Shown here piece after piece: positions 4,399 through 36,284 of a stretch of DNA of 64,000 nucleotides. A model generated the notes under the pieces. The model saw only the letters and a list, made by a program, of their open reading frames with translations, was not told where the DNA came from and made no database searches. The position numbers and the translations under genes are program-made. The DNA is from an uncultured virus (IMG/VR IMGVR_UViG_3300026095_000001) (taxonomy: Duplodnaviria > Heunggongvirae > Uroviricota > Caudoviricetes > Crassvirales). The DNA lies in the IMG/VR virus record IMGVR_UViG_3300026095_000001; one strand, 5' to 3'. Within the stretch, counting starts at the first letter, position 1; each line of letters begins with the position of its first letter.

Positions 4399-4400
4399 AT

Positions 4401-5564: not shown

Positions 5565-5578
5565 ATAGTTGCATTTAT

Positions 5579-5770: not shown

Positions 5771-5771
5771 G

Positions 5772-5844
5772 CGGGGCGGAGCGGACTCGAACCGCCGACC
5801 CAAGGATTAACAATCCTTTGCGCTACCAACTGCGCTACCTCCCC
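5772..5844 (-). tRNA. tRNA-Asn(GTT)
   Basis: Anticodon arm AAGGA-TTGTTAA-TCCTT, T-loop TTCGAGT, G73; one acceptor mismatch. Confidence 0.88.
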
Positions 5845-5847
5845 ATG

Positions 5848-5921
5848 TCCCCCCACCTGGGTTCGAACCAGGGACCCACGAATTAAAAATCCGTTGCTCT
5901 AGCCAGCTGAGCTATGAGGGG
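5848..5921 (-). tRNA. tRNA-Lys(TTT)
   Basis: Anticodon arm ACGGA-TTTTTAA-TTCGT; canonical D and T arms. Confidence 0.9.
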
Positions 5922-7315: not shown

Positions 7316-7404
7316 GAAGGAGCAGGTGTTACATCTAAATTGCAATCAGAATGAAACGTCGGTTAACGAATTGTGTGCGTTAATCTCACCCCGCTCCTCC
7401 GTAC
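7316..7404 (-). ncRNA. Candidate trans-acting small RNA antisense to early-gene start regions
   Basis: Closing stem GGAGGAGC..GGTG/CACC.GCTCCTTC followed by TATTT; inner hairpin TTAACG/CGTTAA; loop TTTCATTCTGATTGCAATTTAGAT. A TTTG...TAATTTGC promoter-like sequence lies upstream (7406-7438). Confidence 0.55.
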
Positions 7405-14265: not shown

Positions 14266-16743
14266 ATGAGCGAATCCCTATCCATCGTATGGGAGCAAGT
14301 TAGTGCGCTCCTGGATATTGGTATCTCTGTGATCCCCGTGCGGGACCAGGAGGTGCAAGGTAAACCGGCGAAGACGCCCTATGGCAACTGGAAACAATAC
14401 CAGCAACGCATCATTACGCCACAAGAGTTGTGGGCGTTGATGGAGCGATACAATACCACGGCCATCGCCATGATCTGCGGACCGATATCGGGCAACCTGG
14501 AGGTAATTGACATCGATGTGAAAAATTGGGCAGGTATTGATGCACGTTATTTTGAAGCCATCCGGGAATTGTACCCGGACCTATGGCAAAACCTCCGTAT
14601 CCACAGCACCCCATCGGGGGGGTATCACATATTGTACCGGATAGATAGGCCCGGTACAGGTAACCAAAAGCTCGCGACTGCGTCCACGTCAACGCAGGCC
14701 GGCATTGAAACAAGGGGTGTGGGGGGCTACATTGTGGCGCCCCCCTCCTTGGGTTACCAAGTTTATCGGGACAACCCGATCCCGCTGGTCACCTGGGAAC
14801 AACGGGAAAGCCTGATCAACCTGGCCAAGAGCTTTGACGAAAAGGTAAAAGTCGTCGCGGCGCCAACACTACCCAAAAACAAATCAGATTACTATGATGA
14901 AAATCCATTCGAACACTTTAATGGTTCAAGTGCCGCTGAATCGATCCTTGTCGATCAGGGATGGACAAGAGAACGATCTGGAAATAGCCATTATCAATAT
15001 TTTACCCGACCGGGTAAATCTACTGGTATCAGTGCCTCTTTCATTCATCGGACCCGACTTTACTATATCTTCACTTCCAGCACCGTACTTGAACCATCAC
15101 GCGCCTATGATCCAGCTGCTATCCTCTGCCGACTACGATTTAATGGAGATGCAAAGGCGACCTACGAATGGCTCGTCGCCAACGGATACGGAAAGATCGC
15201 ACCCCGTCACGAGCAACGACTTATCCGGGCCAGAGTATTAGACGGGGACGCCCTTCCCGGTAACGCCAGTGAGGAAGCCAAAGTCACCTATCAGACCGTA
15301 CGCCTTCAGCTCCAGGAGCGCTACCCGCACGGCACCTACTGGGTGCAGGAGGACGACGAAAATGTCGTCAAGATCAACCGCGAACGGTTGTATCATGTAG
15401 CGAACCGCCTGGGCTTCCGTTATTATCAAACGGGGCTGGTACAGATCGAGGGATACCTTATCCGACATGTCACCGACCGGTATTTCTATGACACGCTCAA
15501 AGCCTATTGCACCGAACCGGAGGCGGACTTCCTGGAGGCTATCCGCAACGCCTTCGAAGCCTTCATCCAACGGGCGGGGACGTTCACCATTACGCGCGTC
15601 CAGCTCCTGGACGAAAACGCGCTATTGAACTCGGATAAACGCACCTGCTATAAATTCTACCGCAACGGATATGTCCGAATCACTGCGACGGAACGATCGT
15701 TTCAGCTATACGCCGATCTACCACCAGGCCGCCTGATCTGGGAAGAGCAACTGATACCGCGTGATCACATTCTGTCCGACGCAAGCGCTACGGCGCATCA
15801 GTCGTTGTATTACCAATTCCTGGAGAAAGCCATCGGCATCACACCATACCTGTGGCAGCTGATCGGCTATCTAGCCCATGACTATAAAGATGAAACCATG
15901 GGGTATTTCGTCGTGCTGGTGGAATCCTGCGCCAACCCCCGCGAAGGCGGCGGGACAGGCAAGAACCTCTTCTGCAACCTGCTGTCCCACATTACGACGG
16001 TCAAGAACCTCAGCGGATCGCAGGTACAACTCAACGAAAAGCTCCTGCAAGCGTGGCAGTACGAGCGGGTGTTGGTGATCTCAGATGTACCGAAACATTT
16101 CAACTTCACCTTTTTCAAAGAGCTGTCAACTGGCAGCGCCACGAAAAAAAATCTTTACCGCGATGAGATCATCCTGGCACCGCACCTGCTGCCTAAGCTT
16201 GTCTTCAGCACCAACTATTCCTTTGAAAATGTGGATGGCGGTATCCTGCGGCGCATTCGTCCACTGGAATTCAGCTCCTTCTTTACTAAAATAGGCGGCG
16301 TCGATCAATACTTCGGCAAACTCTTCCCCCAGGATTGGACCGCAGAAGATTGGCAGGCCTATGACTGGCTCTTGCACCAAGCCATCCAATCGTACCTCGC
16401 CAATCCGAAGATACCAGCCCAGGACCTTTCTACGAGCGGGTGGAACAAGCAATTCGACCAAACGTATCATTTCTCCACGCGCGGGTTCATCCTGGAACAT
16501 TGGGAGCTCTGGCAACGTACGAAATTTGTATCGAACGATGATTTCAAACAGGCGTATGATCTGTATTGCAATGCCAACGGCGTGCAGACGCGCTACCGTC
16601 TCACGGCGTTCCGGCTCAACGAAGCATTGGAAGATTATTGCCGCCGACAGGGGGTCTTTTACGATCGAAACGCTGTGCAGCGCTTCAACAACATAGCGAT
16701 TAGGGGGCGGAGCTTTCAATCACTGGTGCCTGCTCCTTTTTGA
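14266..16743 (+). CDS. Bifunctional primase-polymerase fused to SF3/D5-like helicase
   Basis: VIDIDVK, TPSGGYHILY, IETRGVGGYIVAPPS; Walker A GGTGKN; STN and RR motifs. Confidence 0.92.
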   Translation: MSESLSIVWEQVSALLDIGISVIPVRDQEVQGKPAKTPYGNWKQYQQRIITPQELWALMERYNTTAIAMICGPISGNLEVIDIDVKNWAGIDARYFEAIRELYPDLWQNLRIHSTPSGGYHILYRIDRPGTGNQKLATASTSTQAGIETRGVGGYIVAPPSLGYQVYRDNPIPLVTWEQRESLINLAKSFDEKVKVVAAPTLPKNKSDYYDENPFEHFNGSSAAESILVDQGWTRERSGNSHYQYFTRPGKSTGISASFIHRTRLYYIFTSSTVLEPSRAYDPAAILCRLRFNGDAKATYEWLVANGYGKIAPRHEQRLIRARVLDGDALPGNASEEAKVTYQTVRLQLQERYPHGTYWVQEDDENVVKINRERLYHVANRLGFRYYQTGLVQIEGYLIRHVTDRYFYDTLKAYCTEPEADFLEAIRNAFEAFIQRAGTFTITRVQLLDENALLNSDKRTCYKFYRNGYVRITATERSFQLYADLPPGRLIWEEQLIPRDHILSDASATAHQSLYYQFLEKAIGITPYLWQLIGYLAHDYKDETMGYFVVLVESCANPREGGGTGKNLFCNLLSHITTVKNLSGSQVQLNEKLLQAWQYERVLVISDVPKHFNFTFFKELSTGSATKKNLYRDEIILAPHLLPKLVFSTNYSFENVDGGILRRIRPLEFSSFFTKIGGVDQYFGKLFPQDWTAEDWQAYDWLLHQAIQSYLANPKIPAQDLSTSGWNKQFDQTYHFSTRGFILEHWELWQRTKFVSNDDFKQAYDLYCNANGVQTRYRLTAFRLNEALEDYCRRQGVFYDRNAVQRFNNIAIRGRSFQSLVPAPF

Positions 16744-23626: not shown

Positions 23627-23667
23627 TTGCGTAATACGCGCGTATTACGCAAACTTGTTTATATTTG
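23627..23667 (+). promoter_or_regulatory. Early-operon promoter with perfect 26-bp palindrome
   Basis: TATATTTG -7 box at 23660-23667; TTGCGTAATACGCGCGTATTACGCAA at 23627-23652. Confidence 0.75.
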
Positions 23668-23962
23668 TCCTGTCAGCGGGTAACACCGTTGTAGCTCATT
23701 GCGAAATAAGGCTGTTATCTCCTTCGTGTATACAGGCATCGATCATGTTAGCGTTGAACGTCATGCGATTGATTAGACAACGGATCAGCGTTACCCGTAA
23801 GGGCTGTAAAGAGTGCTGCAATCGACTAGGAAATAAGACGGCAACGCACGGATTAACGGGGATCACTCTATAATGTACTTATATAGTACACACGGATAGC
23901 TAACGAACTTGCAAAGACGTGCGAAGGGAGCGAGACCCTTAAGAGTGCTAAAACTATTTATC

Positions 23963-24217
23963 ATGAAACGACTACAACGTATCAACATCCCAGACGGACA
24001 GGACCCAATGGACGTATTGCACGAACAGCGGACTTTCACCGGCAGAATGACCGCCAAGCGTATGGAATGCTTACAGGCCATAGCCGCCGGTCATACATGG
24101 GAAAGGTATTGCGGACATGAATACGATTGCTGCGGGTGTGCCTGTAAGCAGAAGGCATCCGTAACCTATGCAGCCGGACAAGTAGCTTTTACTATCACCA
24201 CATATTTCAATCATTAA
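23963..24217 (+). CDS. Early protein, Cys-rich (CGHEYDCCGC)
   Basis: First ORF after the leader; A-rich start context. Confidence 0.75.
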   Translation: MKRLQRINIPDGQDPMDVLHEQRTFTGRMTAKRMECLQAIAAGHTWERYCGHEYDCCGCACKQKASVTYAAGQVAFTITTYFNH

Positions 24218-24220
24218 ATC

Positions 24221-24445
24221 ATGAATAATCAAATGCAGCAAAAGGCAGTGCTCGAACAATTGGAGCACCTGATAGATGCACATGGCTTGTCCGGCATTAT
24301 TAGCGGCCTAACAGAGATAGCGAGACAGAAAGCTGATCATATCCGCGAAAATTGGCAGGACAGGGAGCTAAGTAAAGAGTGGGAAAGGTCGGCCAAACAT
24401 TTAGAACGGGCACAGGTGGCGATAGACCGGCTGAACCATTCATAA
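24221..24445 (+). CDS. Early hypothetical protein
   Basis: LE.LID..GL...L..IA..KADHIRENWQD. Confidence 0.75.
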   Translation: MNNQMQQKAVLEQLEHLIDAHGLSGIISGLTEIARQKADHIRENWQDRELSKEWERSAKHLERAQVAIDRLNHS

Positions 24446-24520
24446 CCCCTCATCCCCCGGACAGGCTTAGGCCGGGTCCGCATGCTGTTCGAGTCAGCGG
24501 GGGGAGCTAAATTTTCAACT

Positions 24521-24757
24521 ATGCCTTACTTAGTCAATGTATCCTTAAATGGAAAGCACCTGTTTGCTACGGCGGATCATTCCATCACCAGTTCATCTGA
24601 GCTACTGAAGGTTATGGAGATATTTGAAAAAAAGTTCACCAGCGAAGAGGGCTACAAGATCGGGGTGCAGTATGATCCAAAGTGCAACTATGGGGTGCAT
24701 GTAGATACAGCCAGGAAGGAAGTAATCAACTACTATTATCAGAAAGACGGACAATAA
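24521..24757 (+). CDS. Early hypothetical protein
   Basis: Y.VNVSLNGKHLFAT; start follows a tRNA-like element. Confidence 0.75.
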   Translation: MPYLVNVSLNGKHLFATADHSITSSSELLKVMEIFEKKFTSEEGYKIGVQYDPKCNYGVHVDTARKEVINYYYQKDGQ

Positions 24758-24783
24758 CCCCTCATGAACCGCCTGACGTTTGC

Positions 24784-24822
24784 GTATACGGGGATAGACC
24801 TTCATCTATCCCCGTATACTTT
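24784..24822 (+). terminator. Perfect 15-bp hairpin (terminator or processing site)
   Basis: GTATACGGGGATAGA-CCTTCA-TCTATCCCCGTATAC-TTT. Confidence 0.5.
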
Positions 24823-24893
24823 ATCCATAACGGGTTAAAAGCCCGCTATTCGGGTGCGAAGCCTGGAATGGAGCTAATCTAAATTGCAACATT

Positions 24894-25211
24894 ATGACAG
24901 CTACAGAGTTTAAAAACCGTATTGCTACTGCCTATAAGCAGAACCAGGACGTTAGCGTCCTATTGTATTGGATCAATAAAGAAGGTGCCTATTAATTGCA
25001 GCGGGACTATGGACCGCGTAAGGTATCCATCCTTCAGACACAACGCTATGCATTTAAGACAGAAAAGTTAGAGAAAGGAGAGTCAACCGGCAAAATGGTT
25101 GATTCTTGGTCTGACTTCCCGAAGGCAAAGGAGCTTAAAGACATTGACGCGAACACCGTGGAAGTGTCTTTCGAGTTTGGTAAGATGATCTATACGTTTC
25201 CTAACAGCTAA
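24894..25211 (+). pseudogene. Early protein with in-frame TAA
   Basis: MTATEFKNR...KEGAY*LQRDYGPRK...; TAA at 24993-24995; the ATG carries the conserved upstream motif. Confidence 0.6.
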
Positions 25212-25221
25212 ATCCAATCAC

Positions 25222-25410
25222 ATGAACACTACCACGATCGATAAGCTAAAGAAGGGGGACTACTTCCGTCTCCCTGGTAAACAGCGAGTATATGTCCGCA
25301 AAGAATACAGCAGGGAAGCGAAGAAGTATGAAGCATCTCGCTTCGACGATGTAAATCACTTCATCTATAAGAAGAAAGGGACCATCGTCGAAATTGATTT
25401 TGATTTTTAA
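25222..25410 (+). CDS. Early hypothetical protein
   Basis: KLKKGDYF...VYVRKEY.R..KKY...FDDVN. Confidence 0.75.
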   Translation: MNTTTIDKLKKGDYFRLPGKQRVYVRKEYSREAKKYEASRFDDVNHFIYKKKGTIVEIDFDF

Positions 25411-25642
25411 CCTATAATAACCACGGCATGCCTATCAATTCCAGTAGTATTAATATGACTTCCCATTTAGAGGACCAACGTACGCAATTGATACTTGCCT
25501 ATGCATGGTTTTCATGTCAGCAAGTGTCTGAAGGAAGGGACGGGGCTATGCAAAGTCTTTCACGTGCTATTACTGCATTAGAAAATGCAATCAAATGTAG
25601 TACTCATGTGGTTTAACATTAGAGTAAACAACACTATAGTAT

Positions 25643-25816
25643 ATGCGACAATTAAAAATCGAAGTAAAAGGCGAAGGGACCAAATCAGAAATTGCCTATG
25701 CCCTTCTCAGTATCGTTAATTCCTTATTGGACCCTACACAAGATATAGACGAACAGGCAGGAGCAGGGATTGAATGGGAAGATAAGACGTTAATGACGAA
25801 TATCAATCCAGCGTAA
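25643..25816 (+). CDS. Early hypothetical protein (57 aa)
   Basis: Manual translation MRQLKIEVKGEGTKSEIAYAL... Confidence 0.65.
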   Translation: MRQLKIEVKGEGTKSEIAYALLSIVNSLLDPTQDIDEQAGAGIEWEDKTLMTNINPA

Positions 25817-25890
25817 ACACCACAGCGGGACAACGGCCCATGGCGTAGGAATTCATCATTCCGACCCGCGCTCATCTAAATTGCAACGTT

Positions 25891-26382
25891 ATGAAAAGAA
25901 GAAAAAAGGAAAAGATTATCCCCTACACGGCGGCAAAGTTACGCTGGCATTTGCAAAATAATGTAATGGGGTTGACAGACTACACTATTGACAACATCAT
26001 TGCTACCTGTCAGAAGGTAAATGATCGTAAGCTAACACTCTCAGATGATCCTAATATAGGCTGTACGGTGGCGGAGATGTTAGACGACCTAAGGATTGAG
26101 TATCGCTTCATTGAAGAGAACGACCTTCAGCGGATGTTAGTGCCCCTCGTTGAACGTACAGACTCATGTATCCTATTGGAGGAGCTGGACAAGATCATTA
26201 ACAGGAATAAGAAGGTAACGGACCTAGATAAGCGCTGGTATGAAGAAAAGCTGATTACGCTAGTAGAGAATATGGGGTACGCGCTTATTAAGCATACAGG
26301 TTCTTTGCCAGAGTTGGAAAAGATAGAAGCATTTCAGCAATCGTTAACACAGAATCCGTATCAGTTACGGCTCATTGCCTAA
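25891..26382 (+). CDS. Early hypothetical protein
   Basis: Motif-preceded ATG. Confidence 0.75.
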   Translation: MKRRKKEKIIPYTAAKLRWHLQNNVMGLTDYTIDNIIATCQKVNDRKLTLSDDPNIGCTVAEMLDDLRIEYRFIEENDLQRMLVPLVERTDSCILLEELDKIINRNKKVTDLDKRWYEEKLITLVENMGYALIKHTGSLPELEKIEAFQQSLTQNPYQLRLIA

Positions 26383-26461
26383 CGGTTCAGCGTACGGGGA
26401 GTCTGGGGGATGACCTACCGTCTCGCAAACGGGGTACGCTACTCATCTAAATTGCAATAAC

Positions 26462-26605
26462 ATGAAAACGATCATTAAGACCATTCTTATCGGGATAGCA
26501 ACGGTTGCTATCCTGCTGGTGACGACCTACAGCGTGTATACGCATTCGCTACGCGGGAAATACACGAACGTAGCAACGATACTACAAGGCAACGCGGATC
26601 AATAG
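26462..26605 (+). CDS. Small membrane protein (47 aa)
   Basis: MKTIIKTILIGIATVAILLVTTYSVY; motif-preceded ATG. Confidence 0.65.
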   Translation: MKTIIKTILIGIATVAILLVTTYSVYTHSLRGKYTNVATILQGNADQ

Positions 26606-26686
26606 CACACACCAGGAACACACGGAAGGATCAACACGGGGCGGGCATGGGGTCCGCCCCATTATTATGTAATTAAATCTAAATAT

Positions 26687-26938
26687 ATGGATGAATTATT
26701 AGACAGCCGCGAAAGTATCTATTTTATCAACACAATCACAAAGGGCAAAGATACGTTGCGGTTCAAGCGAGAAGCAAAAAGCGACAAAGAACTAACCCAA
26801 ATGCTGGTCCACAATGGGACGCACTATACCGGCATCAAAATCAGCCGTACAAAGAATGAGCGGACCTTTAGTCAACATTATGACCTTAGCAAAAATGATA
26901 TTAAGATATTAATAAAGTTTCTGCAAGATCAACTTTAA
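26687..26938 (+). CDS. Early hypothetical protein
   Basis: ORF with A-rich start. Confidence 0.7.
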   Translation: MDELLDSRESIYFINTITKGKDTLRFKREAKSDKELTQMLVHNGTHYTGIKISRTKNERTFSQHYDLSKNDIKILIKFLQDQL

Positions 26939-26978
26939 CTAAAACTGATCCCCACAGTATAACAGGCGGAACCATAAT

Positions 26979-27227
26979 ATGAGGCGATCAATTGCTAAAA
27001 TGCTAGTTGATTTTTATTCTGGCATTATCCCAGCCAAGGACATTATAGAGGATTATGAGCAGCTACAAGAGAATGAACAGGATTTGTATGCACTATGTAA
27101 GGAAATTTATGAGACAGTAAATAAAGAAAAATACAGCTGGCCAATGTTTCAAGAGCTTGTAGGCCATGAATTGGCCGATAAGCTGGAAACTATGGTACAA
27201 GCTGGCGCTGATCCGCGCATATCCTAA
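26979..27227 (+). CDS. Early hypothetical protein
   Basis: ORF in operon. Confidence 0.65.
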   Translation: MRRSIAKMLVDFYSGIIPAKDIIEDYEQLQENEQDLYALCKEIYETVNKEKYSWPMFQELVGHELADKLETMVQAGADPRIS

Positions 27228-27306
27228 CACCCCCACAGGGACCGCTGGCCGCAAGGTCGGGCAGCCGTTCGTCACGGCAACCCTGGCTAATCTAAATTGC
27301 AATCTC

Positions 27307-27744
27307 ATGAACAATTATGTAAGGGAAATTGAGCTGTGTTATGGCTCAAAAAAAATCCCAAACGGTAAGATCAATAATGCCAGTTCAGCCGTAGATTTTT
27401 TTCGATCTATATGGGCGAAAGATATAGAGATACGAGAAAGAGCATACGCTGTATATATCAACAACAAGGGGGAGGTATTAGGCTGGTATGAAATAAGTAG
27501 TGGGGGATTAACTGGAACGGTAATGGACGCGCGTTTGATATACAGCGTAGCGTTAAAATGTCTCGCAGCCAGTGTCGTCGTAGCACACAATCACCCTTCG
27601 GGTGATTTGCAACCGAGCCGGGCAGACAGAGAAATGACGCTGAAGCTAAAAGAGGGGGCAACGGTATTGGACATTAAATTGCTAGATCATGTAATCATTA
27701 ACGCGGATAGCTTTTATAGCTTTCAGGAGAGCGGGTTGATTTAA
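27307..27744 (+). CDS. RadC-like JAB-domain protein
   Basis: ISSGG.TGTVMD...AHNHPSG...S..D...LLDHVII...YSF. Confidence 0.92.
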   Translation: MNNYVREIELCYGSKKIPNGKINNASSAVDFFRSIWAKDIEIRERAYAVYINNKGEVLGWYEISSGGLTGTVMDARLIYSVALKCLAASVVVAHNHPSGDLQPSRADREMTLKLKEGATVLDIKLLDHVIINADSFYSFQESGLI

Positions 27745-27769
27745 TCACAGAAATCTAAATTGCAATCAT

Positions 27770-28111
27770 ATGTTTACATTAACACTGTATGACAGGAAAG
27801 GAAAGCCTTTAAAAGAAGGTGATATTGTACGGGTACACGGCGGCACAAACGTTCAATTCTATGCGGAAGTGAAATATTTGGAAAAGGAGCAGGCCATTGC
27901 TCCGTTTCATACCTTTTCATTCCATTCATTCGAAAAGGTTGATAAACTTCCTGACAATGCAGTTCAAAGCACTGAAGAGCGTTATAAGATTTGGTATACG
28001 CACAATCCTAAGACTAAGCTAAAGGAAAATCCAACCTCCAAATATTTACTTGACTGGCGTCAATGCGAGCATTTATTGAAGGATAAATGTTTTCGCATAA
28101 GCAAAATCTAA
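27770..28111 (+). CDS. Early hypothetical protein
   Basis: DRKGKPLKEGDIV; motif-preceded ATG. Confidence 0.75.
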   Translation: MFTLTLYDRKGKPLKEGDIVRVHGGTNVQFYAEVKYLEKEQAIAPFHTFSFHSFEKVDKLPDNAVQSTEERYKIWYTHNPKTKLKENPTSKYLLDWRQCEHLLKDKCFRISKI

Positions 28112-28182
28112 CCTTATCCCCGCTCAGGCCCATAGGCTGTGCATCGAATGCAGGCGGGGAGCTAATCTAAATTGCAAGAGTT

Positions 28183-28680
28183 ATGAAATACGTTAAGATT
28201 CACTACTTCACCGATTGTAAGACAATGGATGAAGTAAAAAAGGCTTATCGAAAGTTAGCCGTAGAACTCCATCCCGATAAGGGGGGGGATGAAGAAAAAT
28301 TCAAGGCGCTAGGTTTGGAATACGAATTTGTATGCAAAAAACTAGCAGCCGGGGAAAAAGTAACAGCAGAGGAACAAGAAAACAGCATCCTGGATGCAGA
28401 AGCGTATAAAAAGGCAATAGACGCGATTGCTAACCTGGAAGGACTTATTATTGAGATTGTCGGGACCTGGATATGGGTAACGGGCGAAACCCGCACACAT
28501 AAAGACGTGCTGAAGGCGGCAGGCTATATGTGGGCTAAGGCTAAAATTGCGTGGTACTTTCGTACAGAGGCACACCGGTCATTCAATCGCCGTAAAATGT
28601 CCCTGGATGAAATACGGGAACGGCATGGGAGTCAACGATACAATGGAAATGGTTATGAAAAGTATCTCAAAGCTAGTTAA
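28183..28680 (+). CDS. J-domain (DnaJ-like) protein
   Basis: VKKAYRKLAVELHPDKGG; GTWIWVTG; SLDEIRERHGS. Confidence 0.88.
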   Translation: MKYVKIHYFTDCKTMDEVKKAYRKLAVELHPDKGGDEEKFKALGLEYEFVCKKLAAGEKVTAEEQENSILDAEAYKKAIDAIANLEGLIIEIVGTWIWVTGETRTHKDVLKAAGYMWAKAKIAWYFRTEAHRSFNRRKMSLDEIRERHGSQRYNGNGYEKYLKAS

Positions 28681-28724
28681 TCACAGGGAGGGACAGCATG
28701 CTGTCCCTCCGCAATTATTAACAT

Positions 28725-29381
28725 ATGGAAAAGACATTCACCATTACCCAGGCCGAAAGATACGTGCTATCCGACTATGCGAAGGGCAATATTAACAAGC
28801 TGAAGAAACTGAATGAAGAAATTTCGTTACTATATCCCTGCGATGCCTATCTAACAGGCTACTTGAGAGACAAGGAGCTAGTAATAGAAAGGACAGCGGT
28901 GAAGCTTGTTCACCCAACCCTGGAAATAGAGGTAGAATTTAGTACGTACAGAAAAAAATATTCGTTTCGATGTTTAACGGAAAACACGTTTCGGGACATC
29001 GGCAATACCAGCGGGATAGGCAAAGATGTTGAAAAGCCAAATGACGTTGGCGTGTTAACAGCAGCCAAAATACGGCAATGGGTAAGCTATTTTGAACAGC
29101 GGTGTAAGGCCCTTGCAGCAGCGAATAAGGCGAACCAAGATAAGGTAACAGCTTTCAGGGCAGCACTGAAGGGGTTGCCTGTCCGCTGGATGGATAAAAA
29201 CAGCGGACAGGTTGTTCGCGGGGGTTTCCGATATCGTTTTGTCATAGATCGCGGGTACATCTCGGAGTATATGGAGTTAGATTCGTACATAGACAAGGGT
29301 CTGGAAAGATTCCTCCTCATGTCGGACAACAAACTATACGAACGAGAACAACGCAATAAAAGAGCGGGTGAAACCGCCTGA
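28725..29381 (+). CDS. Early hypothetical protein
   Basis: 218-aa ORF. Confidence 0.75.
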   Translation: MEKTFTITQAERYVLSDYAKGNINKLKKLNEEISLLYPCDAYLTGYLRDKELVIERTAVKLVHPTLEIEVEFSTYRKKYSFRCLTENTFRDIGNTSGIGKDVEKPNDVGVLTAAKIRQWVSYFEQRCKALAAANKANQDKVTAFRAALKGLPVRWMDKNSGQVVRGGFRYRFVIDRGYISEYMELDSYIDKGLERFLLMSDNKLYEREQRNKRAGETA

Positions 29382-29452
29382 CATTTGGTTATACGGTCTC
29401 GCTGTGTAGGCGGGACCGTATAACTTATTCTTTAACGTTTAAAAGAATCAAT

Positions 29453-29671
29453 ATGACTACTTATCACACTACCATTGACAACAAAAAGGTAAAAAACGGT
29501 TTCATGTCGCCAAAAGAGGTCTTAGAATATTGTACACAACACGGTCTGGTAAAGCCAGATGTATACCTAGTAAGCATTAACGCAGATTTTGTCCATCGGA
29601 GGCTATTCAACTGGGAAAAACAGGAATACGAAAGGGAAGGGGGTGATTATGACCATATGGGGATGTTATAA
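29453..29671 (+). CDS. Early hypothetical protein
   Basis: ORF with A-rich start. Confidence 0.65.
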   Translation: MTTYHTTIDNKKVKNGFMSPKEVLEYCTQHGLVKPDVYLVSINADFVHRRLFNWEKQEYEREGGDYDHMGML

Positions 29672-29750
29672 AAGATTCATAACTATGAGCGGAACAGGCC
29701 GCGTGCGAGGGTTCAACTCCCTTGCATAGTGCTCATCTAAATTGCAAATC

Positions 29751-29864
29751 ATGAAACAGTATGAAATCACCTTGGCCGGGGTTATACGGCTGGGCATCCC
29801 CGAGGGGACCGTTATTAACAGGGCATATGAACCTAATCGTTTATTTTGGACCTGTATTAGTTAA
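29751..29864 (+). CDS. Small early protein (37 aa)
   Basis: Motif-preceded ATG; MKQYEITLAGVIRLGIPEG... Confidence 0.5.
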   Translation: MKQYEITLAGVIRLGIPEGTVINRAYEPNRLFWTCIS

Positions 29865-29879
29865 CCTCAAAACCATTGT

Positions 29880-30233
29880 ATGATCAAAGAAAAAACAGCC
29901 GTCCGTATTGCCAGCGAAACGGGCGAAGCAGGGACAGCCCTGCATAAATTAGGTCAGGGGAAAGGGTACGATATGGCCTATGCGCTACAGTATTTAAAAG
30001 AGGTTGAAAGAGCCTTACGGCCTGACTTTAACCTGATCCCGGGGGAATTGACCAAACGGGAAGAAAAAGAGCTGAACAAGCTCAAGGAATGGCTCGTGTT
30101 CAAAGGCAATGAATACGGGCTAAAATTCGAATGGGAGAAACACAAACTATATGGATACGTGATCCCGTACTTGACAGAAGATACACCGGATAAGTTAGCG
30201 AACAAGGTAAAACCGATTACGTACCTGAAATAA
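29880..30233 (+). CDS. Early hypothetical protein
   Basis: ORF in operon. Confidence 0.7.
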   Translation: MIKEKTAVRIASETGEAGTALHKLGQGKGYDMAYALQYLKEVERALRPDFNLIPGELTKREEKELNKLKEWLVFKGNEYGLKFEWEKHKLYGYVIPYLTEDTPDKLANKVKPITYLK

Positions 30234-30315
30234 CCGTACAAAACCAGGGGGTAACCGCCCCCTGGTTGTTGTGATCTTCGATGATACTACGTGTGCTTAC
30301 TAAATTGCAAATCAC

Positions 30316-30573
30316 ATGAAACGAACAATCATTTATGTAGGCATGGCCGCGTCCTTTGTTGTATGGGCGGTCTGTGCTACCCTATTGTGCACGGGTCCAT
30401 ATAAGCGGCCTATGTACCTGCACGGGATACCCTACGATTCCCATGCAGTGACCATACACCGCGTATCGGAGCAGCCGGACGGGACAAAAACAGTGTGGTA
30501 CACCCAGGACGGCAAGGACACAACGTTGCGGGTAACGCAGAAACAATACGATTCTTTAACCTCCATTCCTTAA
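30316..30573 (+). CDS. Membrane-anchored early protein
   Basis: N-terminal hydrophobic segment; variant motif upstream. Confidence 0.7.
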   Translation: MKRTIIYVGMAASFVVWAVCATLLCTGPYKRPMYLHGIPYDSHAVTIHRVSEQPDGTKTVWYTQDGKDTTLRVTQKQYDSLTSIP

Positions 30574-30582
30574 CAAAACCAT

Positions 30583-30714
30583 ATGACAAAATCCGATAAG
30601 ATCATCATTGCTGTATTCCTTGCCATGCTGGCCATCTTTTTCTATAAAGCGTATAGAGGTTGGCAGCAGGAAAGGATCATCATGGAGCGGTTGCGATCGA
30701 CCCCACAAGACTAA
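30583..30714 (+). CDS. Small membrane protein (43 aa)
   Basis: MTKSDKIIIAVFLAMLAIFFYKAY... Confidence 0.55.
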   Translation: MTKSDKIIIAVFLAMLAIFFYKAYRGWQQERIIMERLRSTPQD

Positions 30715-30802
30715 ACTTAGGTTGGTATGCGATCTCGCATACATCAAGCTCGCCCATGTCTATGGGGGAGCTTTCATTTTATTAATCTTTAAACAAAAAT
30801 AT

Positions 30803-31018
30803 ATGACAGAGAGCAAGTATACAGTTAAAGTATCTTTCACCTTCACCGGCATTTTCAAGGTAAAAGCCGAAAGCAAAGAGGAAGCCCAACGAATGGTGAG
30901 CGAGGATTGCGGCATGACGATGGGGACGGGTATACAGACAACACTGAATGACGAAGATGTTGATTGGATTTTCGATACCCACCCGGAAAAGACAATTCAT
31001 TTCATCAAAAAACAATAA
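30803..31018 (+). CDS. Early hypothetical protein
   Basis: Y.VKV.F.FTG.F.VKAESKEEA...C...VDW.F. Confidence 0.75.
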   Translation: MTESKYTVKVSFTFTGIFKVKAESKEEAQRMVSEDCGMTMGTGIQTTLNDEDVDWIFDTHPEKTIHFIKKQ

Positions 31019-31021
31019 CCA

Positions 31022-31240
31022 ATGTATAAGAAAAACATCTCCACGATTGCCTTGAACGATGAGGAAGGCATTTTCGTGGATCAACTGAACAACCTAATCG
31101 CGGGATATGATCATGCGCCTAGCATCATATATCTCCTGCATAGATACAAGGATGCGCTCATTGATTGGCCGTCCAAGTTCAAAGACTATGATATAGTGAT
31201 CCTGGAGCCTACGTATCAGTTCGCCTTCGCTAAATTTTAA
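31022..31240 (+). CDS. Early hypothetical protein
   Basis: ORF in operon. Confidence 0.65.
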   Translation: MYKKNISTIALNDEEGIFVDQLNNLIAGYDHAPSIIYLLHRYKDALIDWPSKFKDYDIVILEPTYQFAFAKF

Positions 31241-31251
31241 ACCAAATCAAT

Positions 31252-31566
31252 ATGCCAACAACAAAAGCACACGGAGCCATCCGTAAAAAGGAATTTGAGG
31301 TTCAAAGAAAAAAAGACATCCGCACCATTAGGAGGTGGCTGGAAGAGGGAACAATAAAGTCATGGCAGGATGTGTTTGAGATTATGCCCATGTCGCGGGT
31401 CAGTCTGACCATCGGCATTGCCTATAATCCTTTCCTCATGCGGATAAAGTATCCGGAAAAATTTAGCATTGCGGAAATGCAGGAGATCGCTAAAGCGTTT
31501 GGGTGCGGTTATGAAGCGGTACATCATTTTATTTATTACAAACTGGTTCGTAAAAAGAAACGATAA
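31252..31566 (+). CDS. HTH-like protein
   Basis: PEKFSIAEMQEIAKAFG. Confidence 0.7.
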   Translation: MPTTKAHGAIRKKEFEVQRKKDIRTIRRWLEEGTIKSWQDVFEIMPMSRVSLTIGIAYNPFLMRIKYPEKFSIAEMQEIAKAFGCGYEAVHHFIYYKLVRKKKR

Positions 31567-31568
31567 CT

Positions 31569-31862
31569 ATGCTATCCAAAGAAATGAACAAGTGGCATGA
31601 AGGCGAACCACCGCCAAAGGACCAGCGTCCGAAATGCCCCATGTGTGGCAAAGTATTATCCGTAGATCAGTGGAATGAGAAAGACGAAGCGATACAGAAG
31701 GACCCGAAGTTGATAACAAGGACAGTCCTGCCAAGGGGTAAATGCCTGAAATGGCAATATCATTCGTGGGGGCATTTTTGTTCGCAGACATGTGCCACAC
31801 GATACGCCAACGCTCTCTATGATATGATCGTGCAAGGTAAGTTTAAACTCATTAAAAAATAA
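31569..31862 (+). CDS. Zinc-finger protein
   Basis: CPMCGK...GHFCSQTCA. Confidence 0.75.
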   Translation: MLSKEMNKWHEGEPPPKDQRPKCPMCGKVLSVDQWNEKDEAIQKDPKLITRTVLPRGKCLKWQYHSWGHFCSQTCATRYANALYDMIVQGKFKLIKK

Positions 31863-31867
31863 ATTAT

Positions 31868-32071
31868 ATGGACCAGAAAGAAAAGTATCCATACATCCGC
31901 GCATGGGGCACCTACATGGGTAGCGATGCCACCTACATCGATAGGCAAAAAGAAGAGGCGGAAGAGGAAAACGCTCCAAACGATGTTTACTACAAAAGTA
32001 GTTCGGATGGTTGGAAGCGGTATAGCGAAGCTCCTACCCGTGTGCAGAAATTATTAGATGACCATTTATAA
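31868..32071 (+). CDS. Early hypothetical protein
   Basis: YIRAWG.YMGS...YI. Confidence 0.7.
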   Translation: MDQKEKYPYIRAWGTYMGSDATYIDRQKEEAEEENAPNDVYYKSSSDGWKRYSEAPTRVQKLLDDHL

Positions 32072-32091
32072 CCATTAAAAAATAAAATCAT

Positions 32092-32316
32092 ATGCCGGAA
32101 ATCGATGACCAGATCAACAATCTTCCCAGAGAGATCAGGGAAGAGTTTTCAACCATGGAGGAGAACGAGCAATTCCTGTATGATCTCCTGAAAGAGGTTG
32201 AAGCCAAGCTCCAGGCGAGGCCGTATATGGGCGAATTCGTCATGGGCAAAGCATTACGGGAACGCATCGCGCAGGCCGTAGCGCATGAGCCTGGACAGCG
32301 GATACCGAAGGAATAA
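32092..32316 (+). CDS. Hypothetical protein
   Basis: ORF in operon. Confidence 0.65.
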   Translation: MPEIDDQINNLPREIREEFSTMEENEQFLYDLLKEVEAKLQARPYMGEFVMGKALRERIAQAVAHEPGQRIPKE

Positions 32317-32339
32317 TATTCATTCATCAATTAATCAAT

Positions 32340-32633
32340 ATGTCTACAATCCTAAAAGGATTTATCCTACAGACGCACAAGGCGGAAGCCTTGATGCTGG
32401 AGCTGATGGAAAAGAAAGACGCGCAATCGTATGAAACGATGCAGGATCAGCTACGTAAAAATGTATTGCAGTTTATAGCAGCTCCGATTGGCGACCTGGA
32501 GACAGGCGACCTCCTATATTTGGCGAAGCTGGTGCTACGCTACCGGATCAGGAATTCTTCCGGCTTCATGATCCGGCTGGCGAAAGAAAGTGATCGGTTA
32601 GATAACCAAAATAACAGCCATGAAAACAGTTGA
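32340..32633 (+). CDS. Hypothetical protein
   Basis: ORF in operon. Confidence 0.65.
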   Translation: MSTILKGFILQTHKAEALMLELMEKKDAQSYETMQDQLRKNVLQFIAAPIGDLETGDLLYLAKLVLRYRIRNSSGFMIRLAKESDRLDNQNNSHENS

Positions 32634-32826
32634 CAAAAAGCATTTATTGGATTTGATAGCCACTCAGGGGAGATTAGATGATTTAGACACCCACATGGGC
32701 GAGATTATGCAGGAATATACGAACAATCTTAATCCCTCTCAGGTGAACGTAAAGGAGCTGACAGATGAATTATTAACTAGGGTGCTGATCTACACCATTG
32801 CCCTTAAAGTGTTAGCAGATTCATAA
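32620..32826 (+). CDS. Hypothetical protein
   Basis: ORF in operon. Confidence 0.65.
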   Translation: MKTVDKKHLLDLIATQGRLDDLDTHMGEIMQEYTNNLNPSQVNVKELTDELLTRVLIYTIALKVLADS

Positions 32827-32843
32827 ACCTACAAAACATCAAC

Positions 32844-33074
32844 ATGACACGTAAAGACAGACAAGAGAGTAAGGATATCGAAAGGGTAATTAAAACAGTG
32901 GCACCCTTGATCGAAGATTATGGCCTGGGAAACATTGTTATGACCATCGCGGGATATGCTTCGGCTACCGTCGCGACAGAGAAAGAGGTTGACCCAGAGA
33001 GAGCCGCCGCGTATGCGAAAGCAAGTAACCTCTTAACGATTGCCGCAAAGCAAATCCAAAAATTAGAAATCTAA
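32844..33074 (+). CDS. Hypothetical protein
   Basis: ORF in operon. Confidence 0.65.
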   Translation: MTRKDRQESKDIERVIKTVAPLIEDYGLGNIVMTIAGYASATVATEKEVDPERAAAYAKASNLLTIAAKQIQKLEI

Positions 33075-33086
33075 ATCAACAACACG

Positions 33087-33419
33087 ATGGGCAAATCCAA
33101 AAGGAAACTGCCGGAACCCCTACCGGCCATGACGAATGGGAATCTGAGTCTTGCGCTGCTGGATAAGTTACACGAAGAGTGGTGGGATATGGACAACCCC
33201 CACCATATGTACCTTGTCGGATGCATCAAAGAATTATCCCCTAACGGGGAGCCGATCACACTACGCGATTTGTACGATCTCATGAAATCCATGATGGATT
33301 TTTGCGAGACCGTAAAAATGAGCATAGACGAAATTTCAACCGAATTACAATCAACAAAAAAACCTAAAAATGAAAGGACAAACGAAAACAAAAGCATCCC
33401 CCCGCGAAGGAAAAGCTGA
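33087..33419 (+). CDS. Hypothetical protein
   Basis: ORF in operon. Confidence 0.6.
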   Translation: MGKSKRKLPEPLPAMTNGNLSLALLDKLHEEWWDMDNPHHMYLVGCIKELSPNGEPITLRDLYDLMKSMMDFCETVKMSIDEISTELQSTKKPKNERTNENKSIPPRRKS

Positions 33420-33675
33420 ACCAGCCCCCGCTGGCTTCGGCCCCACCATTCACACGATCATGGAGCAGTATAAAGCGGCAGGGGAATGGTATCCAGAAAA
33501 TCAAATGAAGCTACTTACATTGCGCATCGAAAACGAAAAATTGTTGGAGATGCAAAAGCAGACAAGGATCATGCAGGCATCCCATGACTACCATGTGGAG
33601 CAAATTCAGCTCCTGAAAGAGAGTCATGATAAGCTGAACAACGAATTCAGGGAGGTGATGGACAAACTTAAATAA
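33370..33675 (+). CDS. Hypothetical coiled-coil protein
   Basis: ORF in operon. Confidence 0.6.
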   Translation: MKGQTKTKASPREGKAEPAPAGFGPTIHTIMEQYKAAGEWYPENQMKLLTLRIENEKLLEMQKQTRIMQASHDYHVEQIQLLKESHDKLNNEFREVMDKLK

Positions 33676-33683
33676 CCAATCAT

Positions 33684-34295
33684 ATGGAATATATTCCAAC
33701 GCCAAACCTGTTAAGGATCATGGTACAGGCAAAGGCAGATAACGAAATGCGCGCTTGGGTACGGGAAGCTGTATTGCTCCGCATAGAGCAGTTGCGCAAG
33801 AACAGGGAAGAGGATAAGCTGGAAGCCATGCGGGTACTTTTTAAAGCCGTGGATGAGCATTATGCGGAAAGCGATCAACAAACTACCTGTAAGAAGGGAT
33901 GTAATTTTTGCTGCCGCATGAATGTAGATGCGTCAATGGATGAAGCGGCCCTGATCATTCAGTATTGTAAGGACCATGGCATTGCCATCAATAAGAAAGC
34001 ATTGCGGGACCGCCTGTCCGTTCCTTTCCTGGAGGTGCCATGGAGTAAGCATGCAGCCTGCATGTTTTTGAAAGACGGCGAATGTTCCATCTATCCAGTT
34101 CGTCCCTTGAATTGTAGGACCTATTACGCGCAATCAGACCCGGATCGGTGTAATCCAGAAAAATACCGGTTCGATGCCTATAAGCCCGTCATTATCATCG
34201 ATAGGGACATAGAAATTCTGCAAACAGCGTTCTTTAACCTCGTGTTAGAGGAAGCCGGAAGATTGGAAGAGATGTTATTAGCCCAACTCAGTTAA
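33684..34295 (+). CDS. YkgJ-family cysteine-cluster protein
   Basis: CKKGCNFCC...CMFL....CSIYPVRPLNCRTY. Confidence 0.9.
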   Translation: MEYIPTPNLLRIMVQAKADNEMRAWVREAVLLRIEQLRKNREEDKLEAMRVLFKAVDEHYAESDQQTTCKKGCNFCCRMNVDASMDEAALIIQYCKDHGIAINKKALRDRLSVPFLEVPWSKHAACMFLKDGECSIYPVRPLNCRTYYAQSDPDRCNPEKYRFDAYKPVIIIDRDIEILQTAFFNLVLEEAGRLEEMLLAQLS

Positions 34296-34347
34296 AGGCT
34301 GGCTCCCTGGATCATTGCCGGGGTGGGAGCTTAATATTAAACACAAT

Positions 34348-34608
34348 ATGAAAAAGCAAATTTTCGTGTATCTGAGCTTATTAGGCCTTATTAGCTGTAC
34401 AGCTCGGCAATGTCAGGGCTGCAATCGTGCAACGCAATTTACAGATAGAAACTATGATGTTAAGTTGTATTCCGGCGACTCCATGGTATTCCATGATGTT
34501 TTTCACGGCATTATTAATCAGGAGGAGCATTCTGATGGGTTCTATTATTTCAAGGGAGATACCCTGGTAGAAATCGGCGGAAATTATGTCATTAAATCCC
34601 TTAAATAA
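34348..34608 (+). CDS. Putative lipoprotein
   Basis: MKKQIFVYLSLLGLISC lipobox-like signal. Confidence 0.7.
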   Translation: MKKQIFVYLSLLGLISCTARQCQGCNRATQFTDRNYDVKLYSGDSMVFHDVFHGIINQEEHSDGFYYFKGDTLVEIGGNYVIKSLK

Positions 34609-34880
34609 TGGACCGAACAGAACTACGCATTAAAGTGGGGGTGGCCTTAAACGCTGTCCCCCTCTTACCCACCAATCCGGTGCACGGGTTGGCTATTGAC
34701 ATGATCAACGACGCGGCGGCTGTTAACGGTGCCGTCGATTTAATGAAGTTGCGCAATGCAGCAGGCGAGTACATGAAAGTAATGTATGCGCTCTCAGAAA
34801 CGATTGACACTATTTTAAAAGAGCAAAATCAACAACAACATGCCCAAGAAAAAGGAAGAACGTTACCGGATCACGCTTAA
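34608..34880 (+). CDS. Hypothetical protein
   Basis: TAATG overlap. Confidence 0.65.
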   Translation: MDRTELRIKVGVALNAVPLLPTNPVHGLAIDMINDAAAVNGAVDLMKLRNAAGEYMKVMYALSETIDTILKEQNQQQHAQEKGRTLPDHA

Positions 34881-35052
34881 GGCGGAAGGTACGACCCTGG
34901 AGCTGATCCAGGAGGTTGAGCATTTTTTAGATGCCTTGTACCACGGGGATCATTCCCGGAAACCTGCGTGGACCGTACGCAGTACACGCGGTGCGTTTGC
35001 CACGGTATTATTAAACGATAAAACAAACGTTCGTGGAGCGGATGCCACGTAA
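34840..35052 (+). CDS. Hypothetical protein
   Basis: ORF in operon. Confidence 0.6.
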   Translation: MPKKKEERYRITLKAEGTTLELIQEVEHFLDALYHGDHSRKPAWTVRSTRGAFATVLLNDKTNVRGADAT

Positions 35053-35055
35053 AGC

Positions 35056-35286
35056 ATGAATACAAAGACCAAACATTTCATCACACGCCTGAAGCGTTTG
35101 CCGTTGCAAACAAAGTACGGCAAGATGATGCGCAAAAGAGCATGGAAATGGGAGGACATCCCCCTATCGCTGAACATAACCAATATAAGTGACGGACAAC
35201 ATCGCTTGCTTGCTGTCATGAAAACGGATAAAGAATATCGCTACAACGGTCGCCCCTTCACCACCATCAAAACCATTAAACGTTAG
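35056..35286 (+). CDS. Small protein with DGQHRL motif
   Basis: ISDGQHRLLAVMK. Confidence 0.55.
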   Translation: MNTKTKHFITRLKRLPLQTKYGKMMRKRAWKWEDIPLSLNITNISDGQHRLLAVMKTDKEYRYNGRPFTTIKTIKR

Positions 35287-35303
35287 CGGATCGTAACCGC
35301 TGT

Positions 35304-35528
35304 ATGATTATGAAGGCGGAAAATGCACCAAATAAAGATATAGCCAGCGCTATCTGCAATATGTGTTTCGATTATAAACCGTATGAAACAGTCCTGTGGG
35401 GTGAATCCATCGAAGAGCGGATTTATAACTGTTGGCAGATGTTGCATTATATTCTAAAGCGATCTCCAAACATCATAGAACTCATTCAGGAAACGGAGCC
35501 AGATGAGGAAAATATACTCAACAAATAA
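35304..35528 (+). CDS. Hypothetical protein
   Basis: ORF in operon. Confidence 0.6.
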   Translation: MIMKAENAPNKDIASAICNMCFDYKPYETVLWGESIEERIYNCWQMLHYILKRSPNIIELIQETEPDEENILNK

Positions 35529-35593
35529 CACCCGCCCCACAAGGCTTTAGGCCGATGGATTCGCCCTCCTGGTGGGGTGCCAAAACAACAACT

Positions 35594-36010
35594 ATGTTAG
35601 CAGAAACTATTGTAGAAGAAATAACTGTCAGGGGCCATCGGTTCATCATAAAGAACCTGAAAGGCAATATCGAAGGTGCGCGTCCTGATTACATTGTGAC
35701 TAATCCGGGAGGCGGTTGGCATTGGCCGATCAAGCGCTTAAAGGAAGCGCGACCCATTTGCCGGAGATATATTAAGGGGAAATTGCCCATTCGGTATGTG
35801 GCGGAAATGGTAAAGATCATTCAAGAGGAGTGGCCGGGCTGTCAAGTAGTATGGGCTATGTCCGGAACGGCCTATATAAGGGTTATTGGGAAGATTGTGC
35901 GTGTATCCAATCACGATGTAAATCCAAAACGCGAAACTGTTCGCGCGGACGTTTATTTATTTGCAAAGCTATTTACCAAAATTGAAATTCTTGCTCTTAT
36001 AAAGGGTTAA
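35594..36010 (+). CDS. Hypothetical protein (SG.AY...VRVSNH motif)
   Basis: Start follows a tRNA-like element. Confidence 0.65.
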   Translation: MLAETIVEEITVRGHRFIIKNLKGNIEGARPDYIVTNPGGGWHWPIKRLKEARPICRRYIKGKLPIRYVAEMVKIIQEEWPGCQVVWAMSGTAYIRVIGKIVRVSNHDVNPKRETVRADVYLFAKLFTKIEILALIKG

Positions 36011-36062
36011 GCCCACGGCCGGATCATGCCCGGCTTAGAGCGCTCATCTAAATTGCAATCTT

Positions 36063-36284
36063 ATGTCACAGAAAGATTTATTATTCCGGGGGTATACCAA
36101 CTTCCAGGCATTCTATTTTGATCTTATGGTCAAGAGCCGTAGCGGCCCATTCAGCACGCAAGACATGTACCAAGAGCTGGAGAAGGCGCAACAGCGCGAA
36201 TGCCTGCTGTATCTCCTGGAGGAGGCCAAGGGGCACGACAAAGATGCGTTCAACGCACTGGAGGCCATTGCCGTGATCGTGTAA
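36063..36284 (+). CDS. Hypothetical protein
   Basis: Motif-preceded ATG. Confidence 0.7.
   Translation: MSQKDLLFRGYTNFQAFYFDLMVKSRSGPFSTQDMYQELEKAQQRECLLYLLEEAKGHDKDAFNALEAIAVIV

Follow-up and report, generated by a model that had tools for sequence, protein, structure and literature searches.

tRNA-like elements before the start codons of small Crassvirales genes: candidate cut sites for host tRNA-processing enzymes

What are tRNA-shaped folds that are not tRNAs doing between the small genes of a phage? The question is raised by a stretch of 64,000 nucleotides (nt), here called the window, of the uncultured Crassvirales virus IMGVR_UViG_3300026095_000001 in IMG/VR. A block of ~45 small genes on its plus strand, at 23.9-38 kilobases (kb), is the home of eleven such elements, and the homologous block of a related phage, G001, carries twelve more. 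The elements fold, resemble tRNAs, form a family, lie on the coding strand and keep a fixed place before start codons. To judge by these sequence features, they probably mark sites in a long message at which host tRNA-trimming enzymes would cut. G001 is an IMG/VR contig of 76.6 kb, rated 100% complete, with a primase 67% identical to that of the window; its elements are termed g0, gx, gy, ga, gb, gc, gd, ge, gf, gg, gh and gi.

A preliminary description of the window had named eleven hairpin loops belonging to such elements. All of them are present in the sequence where they had been placed, and eleven elements have been delimited around them. The coordinates below comprise the body and a 5-nt tail; z is the energy z-score, and stem lengths are in base pairs (bp).

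23865-23951, plus strand: element A, in the leader of the block's first gene; an 82-nt four-way, cloverleaf-shaped fold with T-like arm AAGGG-AGCGAGA-CCCTT and tail GCTAA, 16 nt from stem end to ATG; z -1.9, or -3.3 with 10 extra nt on the 5' side; its G001 counterpart is g0 (L030 20520-20584; 7-bp outer stem, loop TTCGTGA).

24453-24510, plus strand: element B; stem TCCCCC/GGGGGA, bulged hairpin, T arm TGCTG-TTCGAGT-CAGCG, tail GCTAA; z -2.0; ATG 15 nt downstream.

24784-24819, plus strand: strong hairpin GTATACGGGGATAG...CTATCCCCGTATAC, then TTTAT, adjoining element C upstream; likely a partial terminator or 3' stabiliser.

24824-24877, plus strand: element C; stem TCCAT/ATGGA, loop TGCGAAG, tail GCTAA; z -3.7; a rod at minimum energy.

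25825-25874, plus strand: element D; stem GCGGG/CCCGC, T arm GGAA-TTCATCA-TTCC, 2 unpaired nt, tail GCTCA; z -0.7, the weakest among the Y-shaped elements.

26389-26445, plus strand: element E; 7-bp stem AGCGTAC/GTACGCT, T arm CCGT-CTCGCAA-ACGG, tail ACTCA; z -2.0; a rod at minimum energy.

27236-27290, plus strand: element F; stem CAGGG/CCCTG, GNRA-capped hairpin, T arm GCCG-TTCGTCA-CGGC, tail GCTAA; z -1.3; RadC-like gene downstream.

28117-28165, plus strand: element G; stem TCCCCGC/GCGGGGA, hairpin GGCC-CATA-GGCT, T arm TGC-ATCGAAT-GCA, tail GCTAA; z -1.9; DnaJ-domain gene downstream.

29682-29735, plus strand: element H; 6-bp stem ACTATG/CATAGT and 6-bp T arm CGAGGG-TTCAACT-CCCTTG in a gapless 12-bp stack, tail GCTCA; z -3.1; the hairpin weakly matches the T arm of transfer-messenger RNA in Rfam.

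34302-34335, plus strand: element K, a doubtful member of the family; bulged hairpin GCTCCC-TGG-ATCATTG-CCG-GGGT-GGGAGC, tail TTAAT; z -0.5.

35534-35583, plus strand: element M; 7-bp stem GCCCCAC/GTGGGGT, hairpin GGC-TTTAG-GCC, T arm GGA-TTCGCCC-TCC; tRNA-like 3' end G-CCA-A (tail GCCAA); z -1.8.

35993-36046, plus strand: element N, its 5' strand within the end of the upstream gene; stem GCTCT/AGAGC, hairpin GGG-TTAAG-CCC, T arm GGCCGG-ATCATGC-CCGGCT, tail GCTCA; z -1.8.

One architecture had been claimed for all of these: a small hairpin and a T-arm-like hairpin, both closed in by an outer stem. At minimum energy it is found in B, D, F, G and N, with loops of 5-7 nt in the T-arm-like hairpin. 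It is not found in H, where the outer stem is absent from the minimum-energy fold, in C, E and M, which are rods for which the T-like hairpin is also possible, in the four-way A or in the bulged hairpin K. The tails named in that description follow ten of the eleven elements (GCTAA five times, GCTCA three times, ACTCA and GCCAA once each), leaving K with its divergent TTAAT.

Is this arrangement more than chance? When the search is anchored at the tail, 20 of 412 NCTMA sites on both strands have an acceptor stem that ends exactly at the tail together with an abutting hairpin; these comprise eight elements (B, C, D, E, F, G, H, N) and 12 of the 404 background sites. The energy z-scores are individually modest (-0.5 to -3.7) and negative in 11/11, summing to a Stouffer z of about -6.3, to be read with the caveat that the boundaries were chosen to take in outer stems. 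A scorer that combines position weight matrices with pairing, its loop and tail matrices trained solely on G001, places B, H, G, F, D, N, C and E (18.5-30.0, B leading with 30.0) at the top of the plus strand of the window. The best background match on either strand reaches 17.2; M ranks tenth (16.8), and A and K are missed. Across 40 dinucleotide shuffles there are on average 0.375 matches of at least 18.5 per 64 kb, with a maximum of 2. The anchored search, the scorer and the shuffles all argue against chance.

Other ways of describing the family were less useful. A loose, unanchored descriptor proved unspecific (32 + 46 matches, later 21 + 32). Covariance modelling was replaced by the anchored descriptor and the scorer: MAFFT failed to align the 5' acceptor strands over inserts that differ in length, and a model seeded from ge alone (R1) was over-tied to the ge sequence and misaligned short G001 loci. 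Over 94 kb, R1 returned ge itself, gf (E 0.0025), G (0.048), N (0.14), B (0.98) and C (6.4), amid noise and real T arms.

Good support for the claimed tRNA likeness, with the acceptor stem stacked on the T arm, comes chiefly from G001, whose elements in the same block are clearly tRNA-like, much more so than those of the window. Their stacks are gapless (7+5, 5+7 or 6+6 bp), their loops read TTCGACT, TTCGAAC, TTCAAAT, TTCGATT, TTCAAGT, TTCGTGA and TTCAATG, and their tails are GCTAA, GCTCA and CCTCA. Element ge has a 7-bp acceptor stem and a 5-bp T stem with the loop TTCGAAC and no gap. The minimum-energy folds of ga, gb and gf are cloverleaves, the third arm being stunted in gf and gb, and ga scores 33.7 bits against the Rfam tRNA family RF00005 (cut-off 29, E 3.6e-4) and is called by ARAGORN as a tRNA with an abnormal or defective anticodon loop. 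A reverse scorer trained on the window's loops and tails alone gives ge, ga, gf, g0 and gx 26.6-30.4 and gi 20.1. The real tRNAs of G001 reach at most 21.9 with it, under the first five of these elements. The scorer misses gb, gc, gd, gg, gh and gy, in which the loop is 6 nt long or shifted or a bulge is present. Recovery across the two phages is thus 8/11 in the window and 6/12 in G001. H and ge stand before homologous genes (52% identity) and have the fold, loop type and tail in common, with no stem sequence shared.

Among 15 primase loci more distant than G001, only two carry a mini-tRNA-like element, one each, with a score of at least 19. Both occupy the same kind of slot, between plus-strand genes, and neither is called by ARAGORN.

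L040, 7742-7792, plus strand: element with T arm ACAGG-TTCGAAT-CCTGT and a 7-bp acceptor stem; primase 44% identical.

L048, 16938-17008, plus strand: element after a terminator hairpin; primase 40% identical.

The dimensions of the elements are also close to those of a tRNA, in which RNase P and RNase Z measure the 12-bp stack of acceptor and T stem. In 16/16 elements measured, 10-12 nt separate the T loop from the tail (5+7 = 12 in tRNA), which further bears out the likeness, while T stem and acceptor stem share this length in varying proportion (5+7, 6+6, 7+5, 8+4). G, H, ga, ge and gb have a gapless stack of exactly 12 bp. RNase P is described as a ruler on tRNA in PMC4919913. At loop positions 2-4 of a hand alignment, T occurs in 13/15, C in 14/15 and R in 14/15 elements, with A at position 5 in 7/15; the TTCRANN type of T loop is good in G001 and poor in the window.

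Could these be remnants of tRNA genes and nothing else? Element ga is a damaged tRNA, and the copies in the window look more eroded than those of G001, as would be expected of decaying tRNA pseudogenes without function. We consider this most improbable. Pairing is kept in the face of differing sequence: the outer 5-bp strands are distinct in 15/17 cases, with 3-6 pair types per position, in a hand alignment where pairing was a selection criterion and the share of paired positions therefore carries no weight. Neutral decay also predicts neither a confinement to the coding strand, nor a place 15-22 nt before an ATG, nor a shared tail, and the reading is disfavoured. The elements of the window are not intact tRNA genes either: ARAGORN and Rfam find only five real tRNAs there, with none of the elements among them. 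Rfam searches for ribozymes and other families at 23800-36200 (E<=10) gave only 5 weak, unrelated matches.

Several observations weigh against a tRNA-derived processing signal. In the window, A at loop position 5 is kept only in B, G and H; in D, F, M and N, 1-2 nt stay unpaired where the T stem should join the acceptor strand; the T stems of G and M are down to 3 bp; and E, M and C, as said, are rods. The window's own copies are weak T-loop mimics, and a tRNA reading drawn from the window alone would be weak. RF00005 has no match at 23800-36200 (E<=10), and among the elements of G001 it matches only ga. Bacterial tRNAs usually begin with G; here the 5' acceptor strands are C-rich and their first base is T in 7, G in 4, A in 3 and C in 3. 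Without its tail term the scorer no longer separates elements from background, and the evidence therefore rests on fold and tail jointly. Finally, ordinary terminator hairpins inside the block indicate that it may not be one long transcript.

Do the elements act as RNA or as DNA? All 23 occupy spacers and are oriented like the genes. Compared with its complement, the plus strand gives the better fold in 14/21 elements (mean -2.0 kcal/mol, Wilcoxon p 0.019) and has 28 G-U pairs compared with 15 in the complement. Together with a tRNA likeness that is confined to the sense strand, this bias points to RNA rather than DNA. Stems of this kind could nevertheless form in single-stranded DNA, as N4-type hairpin promoters, cruciforms or origins. 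The virion RNA polymerase of a crAss-like phage transcribes single-stranded DNA, according to one report (10.1101/2020.03.07.982082), and a 1097-amino-acid structural protein of the window (50094-53387, plus strand) has a weak match of 24.7 bits, short of the cut-off of 27, to the C-terminal domain of the crAss muzzle protein. No RNA polymerase, of the DFDxD type or other, was found in the window's large open reading frames (ORFs) or in the whole of G001, however, and both the G-U pairs and the sense-strand T loops speak for RNA. Action at the DNA level is therefore disfavoured and appears very improbable.

The elements are also regular in position. From the acceptor end to the next gene's ATG there are 15-17 or 20-22 nt in 22/22 elements, the short class having leaders of type GCTAAAAYTATT and the long class leaders with AAATTGCAA. 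In folds of whole spacers the leaders are unpaired. Runs of GGAG resembling Shine-Dalgarno sites in the 3' acceptor strands were dismissed because they lie 17-27 nt from the ATG. A fixed spacing and an open leader would also be expected if the module served by its structure alone, the fold being kept on the mRNA uncut by tRNA enzymes, as a shield against exonucleases at the downstream 5' or upstream 3' end, or as a device that uncouples translation between neighbouring genes and holds the leader open. That the copies in the window have lost several tRNA features and retained their stems fits this notion as well. It leaves unexplained, however, why a T-loop sequence and a 12-nt ruler have been kept, and why G001 has near-perfect T arms and one near-complete tRNA; we regard it as possible, if doubtful.

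Between tail and start codon lies a second conserved feature, the box TCTAAATTGCAA, of which there are 9 exact copies and one with a single mismatch, all on the plus strand and each 3-5 nt ahead of an ATG.

24878, 25875, 26446, 27291, 27754, 28166, 29736 and 36047, plus strand: exact copies in the block.

30299, plus strand: copy with one mismatch.

7333-7345, plus strand: exact ATCTAAATTGCAA (box at 7334) in a spacer between minus-strand genes, with no tRNA-like fold; 5 nt further on stands the ATG of a 10-codon ORF.

In G001 the box takes the form (C)AACAAATTGCAAT, and the core common to both phages is AAATTGCAA, which lacks TA. The central TTGCAA is palindromic, and AATTGCAATT of G001 is a 10-bp palindrome. 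By analogy, the box could be an operator or a site for a translational repressor resembling RegA.

A repeated box joined to a stem-loop recalls the PeSL promoter/terminator motifs of T4-type phages. On that reading the stem would close one unit and the box open the next, and the repeats would be used mainly for recombination that shuffles gene cassettes. Three of the ten box copies (27754, 30299 and 7334) lack a tRNA-like fold, which speaks for this reading. Spacer C and its upstream hairpin are conserved at the nucleotide level in G001 (homologue gy), ~70% identical, although the genes behind are unrelated and those in front barely alike. The upper stem of that hairpin shows compensatory changes, and the outer stem of the element has moved by one pair in gy, still abutting the tail. 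C, gy, gg and L048 each have a terminator hairpin ahead of the element. In a low-depth (3.8) contig of run X1, 336 other bases stand in place of 25811-26939, with the loss of elements D and E, three genes and one hairpin; the flanks are diverged, and the change is a cassette swap between spacers. Against such boundary cassettes, the box does not fit the host -7 consensus: the pattern TTTG-N17-23-TANNTTTG has 4 matches (1.95 expected), none at an element or box, and the shared core has no TA. A scan for U-tract terminators flags plain hairpins at 26638, 29387 and 30247 and 0/11 elements, whose stems are followed by GCTMA and not by a U tract. No phage RNA polymerase was found in the window or in G001, and recombination has no need of a tRNA shape. 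On balance, a role of this kind is unlikely.

We thus return to processing by host tRNA enzymes, a plausible and still tentative account in which the elements are "t-elements" of tRNA origin that host RNase P would cut together with a 3' enzyme, for instance RNase Z. We infer each of its enzymatic steps. The elements would be transcribed within the long sense-strand message of the block, where they would mimic the upper half of a tRNA, an acceptor stem on a T arm with one leftover hairpin, each making up one module with the start codon that follows it and the short open leader in between. The cut of RNase P would fall on the first acceptor base, where the acceptor stem has its 5' edge, and that of the 3' enzyme after the discriminator-like G in the tail GCTMA. 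For the latter enzyme RNase Z is a natural and likely choice, because 0/12 real tRNA genes of the two phages encode CCA and CCA-less tRNA genes are linked to RNase Z; the host must therefore trim and CCA-tail such ends. Cutting would split the message into single-gene mRNAs with 5' ends 14-21 nt before the AUG and an open A/U-rich leader, and the hairpin just upstream of C, gy, gg and the L048 element would shield the 3' end that the cut leaves on the upstream mRNA. Neither a phage RNase nor a phage RNA polymerase was found by Pfam (87 ORFs), by PHROGs or by a scan for the DFDxD motif, so that transcription and processing would fall to the host.

If the elements are excised, what becomes of the pieces? 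About ten mini-tRNAs per early transcript might double as a host-takeover weapon, acting in trans as decoys for host defence enzymes that target tRNA, or throttling the maturation of host tRNA as a competing load on RNase P, RNase Z and the CCA enzyme; such a second use of tRNA-derived mimics is improbable. Action in trans could even be the main purpose, with decoys for host nucleases or toxins that attack tRNA, or a slowing of host tRNA maturation. The ~ten copies per early-type block in two phages and the G-CCA end of M would suit it. Having no anticodon arm, however, the elements do not address anticodon nucleases, and a decoy needs no tight tie to start codons; this, too, is distinctly improbable.

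The genomic setting is that of a Bacteroidota-type phage from soil or rhizosphere, of whose ~77-kb genome the window makes up most. A 77,165-nt contig from a rhizosphere DNA run spans the window and joins its two ends, and the genome therefore closes on itself. Four DNA runs carry identical sequence, with zero variants within elements; no RNA run containing the phage was found. Among the products of the block, Pfam recognises RadC-like, DnaJ-domain, helix-turn-helix and CxxCxxCC proteins, and nearly all others have no known family. Its description as "early" is what we infer from the gene layout.

2-1285, minus strand: integrase.

3607-5921, minus strand: five tRNA genes (ARAGORN and Rfam).

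14266-16743: primase-polymerase.

23627-23652: two-way terminator-like palindrome at the start of the block.

23660-23667, plus strand: TATATTTG, just after the palindrome, the sole clean -7 box seen.

26638-26660, 28688-28711, 29387-29425 and 30247-30263, plus strand: ordinary terminator-like hairpins within the block.

From 46 kb on: structural genes and large terminase.

Read by eye, TATATTTG perfectly fits what we take to be the Bacteroidota -7 promoter consensus, and it is likely the promoter of the gene block. One of the five tRNA genes (4230-4323, minus strand) is an odd 94-nt tRNA with a long variable arm, to which ARAGORN assigns the anticodon AAA (Phe) and Rfam gives 38.9 bits; its counterpart in G001 (L030 355-452, minus strand) has a 6-nt anticodon loop, and its anticodon is not assignable. 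In the structural module, an 1850-amino-acid protein (56130-61682, plus strand), which follows the 1097-amino-acid protein mentioned above, has an internal histidine-phosphatase domain (residues 749-899, E 2.8e-20).

Relatives of the window are few. The primase search returned, besides G001 and the 15 loci already mentioned, one Bacteroidota metagenome-assembled genome, the only primase relative in genome collections, and a profile search with two proteins returned G001 only. A megablast search of the window against 50,697 phage records gave no match, and tblastn against phage records gave only matches below 60% identity (25-35% among the matches listed). The window motif was not found as a cluster in IMG/VR, JGI metagenomes or phage records: the 27 single matches of a 16-mer in IMG/VR were read as chance, as was the one match of a 20-base pattern in JGI metagenomes, because its contig looks eukaryotic. 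A search with the DnaJ-like protein led to one unrelated phage, whose locus (L028 5990-6790) carries a start-proximal repeat of its own, AACAGACTTAAAGATGAGCAA, ahead of three consecutive genes and shows no structured elements. The hairpin AAACGTTAGCGGATCGTA(A/G)CCGCT, with a 5-bp stem and the loop ATCGTAA or ATCGTAG, is nearly identical at 35277-35303 of the window and at L046 3241-3268, where the flanking genes, by eye, are not homologous.

tRNA punctuation is a textbook matter for mitochondria and is not established for bacteriophage operons. If processing by host tRNA enzymes is what these elements serve, Bacteroidota phages, whose mRNAs lack Shine-Dalgarno sites, would use the tRNA maturation machinery to make defined short leaders for each small early gene. 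G001 and the window would represent successive stages in the decay of tRNA genes into pure processing signals. Genome annotators would gain a new class of intergenic feature, and multi-gene constructs in Bacteroidota a compact, portable processing signal. Full-text literature searches found no paper on tRNA-like punctuation elements in phage operons; if the elements act as proposed, this would be punctuation of the t-element type, here in a phage and in ~ten copies joined to a tail and a start-codon leader.

How, then, do the elements compare with known systems? In mitochondria, Ojala et al. reportedly described in 1981 how the genes of a long transcript are separated by tRNA-shaped units that tRNA-processing enzymes excise. 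The phage elements likewise are tRNA-shaped units between the genes of a putative long transcript, but the mitochondrial marks are working tRNAs, whereas those of the phage have no anticodon arm and its real tRNAs lie elsewhere on the other strand. The early genes of T7 are said, following Dunn and Studier, to be separated by RNase III sites. There, too, host-nuclease signals in the spacers divide an early message and leave structure at the new ends; the T7 sites are long double-stranded hairpins, in contrast to the 5-8-bp stems and tRNA-like arrangement of the window's elements.

The PeSL of T4-type phages consists, according to Comeau et al. (2014, PMC4122927), of a terminator and a host-type early promoter. 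It resembles the phage module as a repeated stem-loop with a conserved sequence between small, variable early genes, linked to cassette shuffling, and it differs in that the box of the window misfits the host promoter consensus and the structure ahead of it is tRNA-shaped, without a U tract. A precedent for tRNA-like processing signals at mRNA borders is provided by the t-elements of plant mitochondria, as presented by Forner et al. (2007, PMC1920247). In both cases, folds that resemble tRNAs without being tRNAs stand where protein-coding mRNAs have their borders, and RNase P and/or RNase Z are proposed to read them as signals in cis. The mRNA ends are mapped in plants and predicted in the phages. 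Unlike the plant t-elements, those of the phages occur about ten to an operon, with a conserved 5-nt tail and a fixed distance of 15-22 nt to the start codon that follows.

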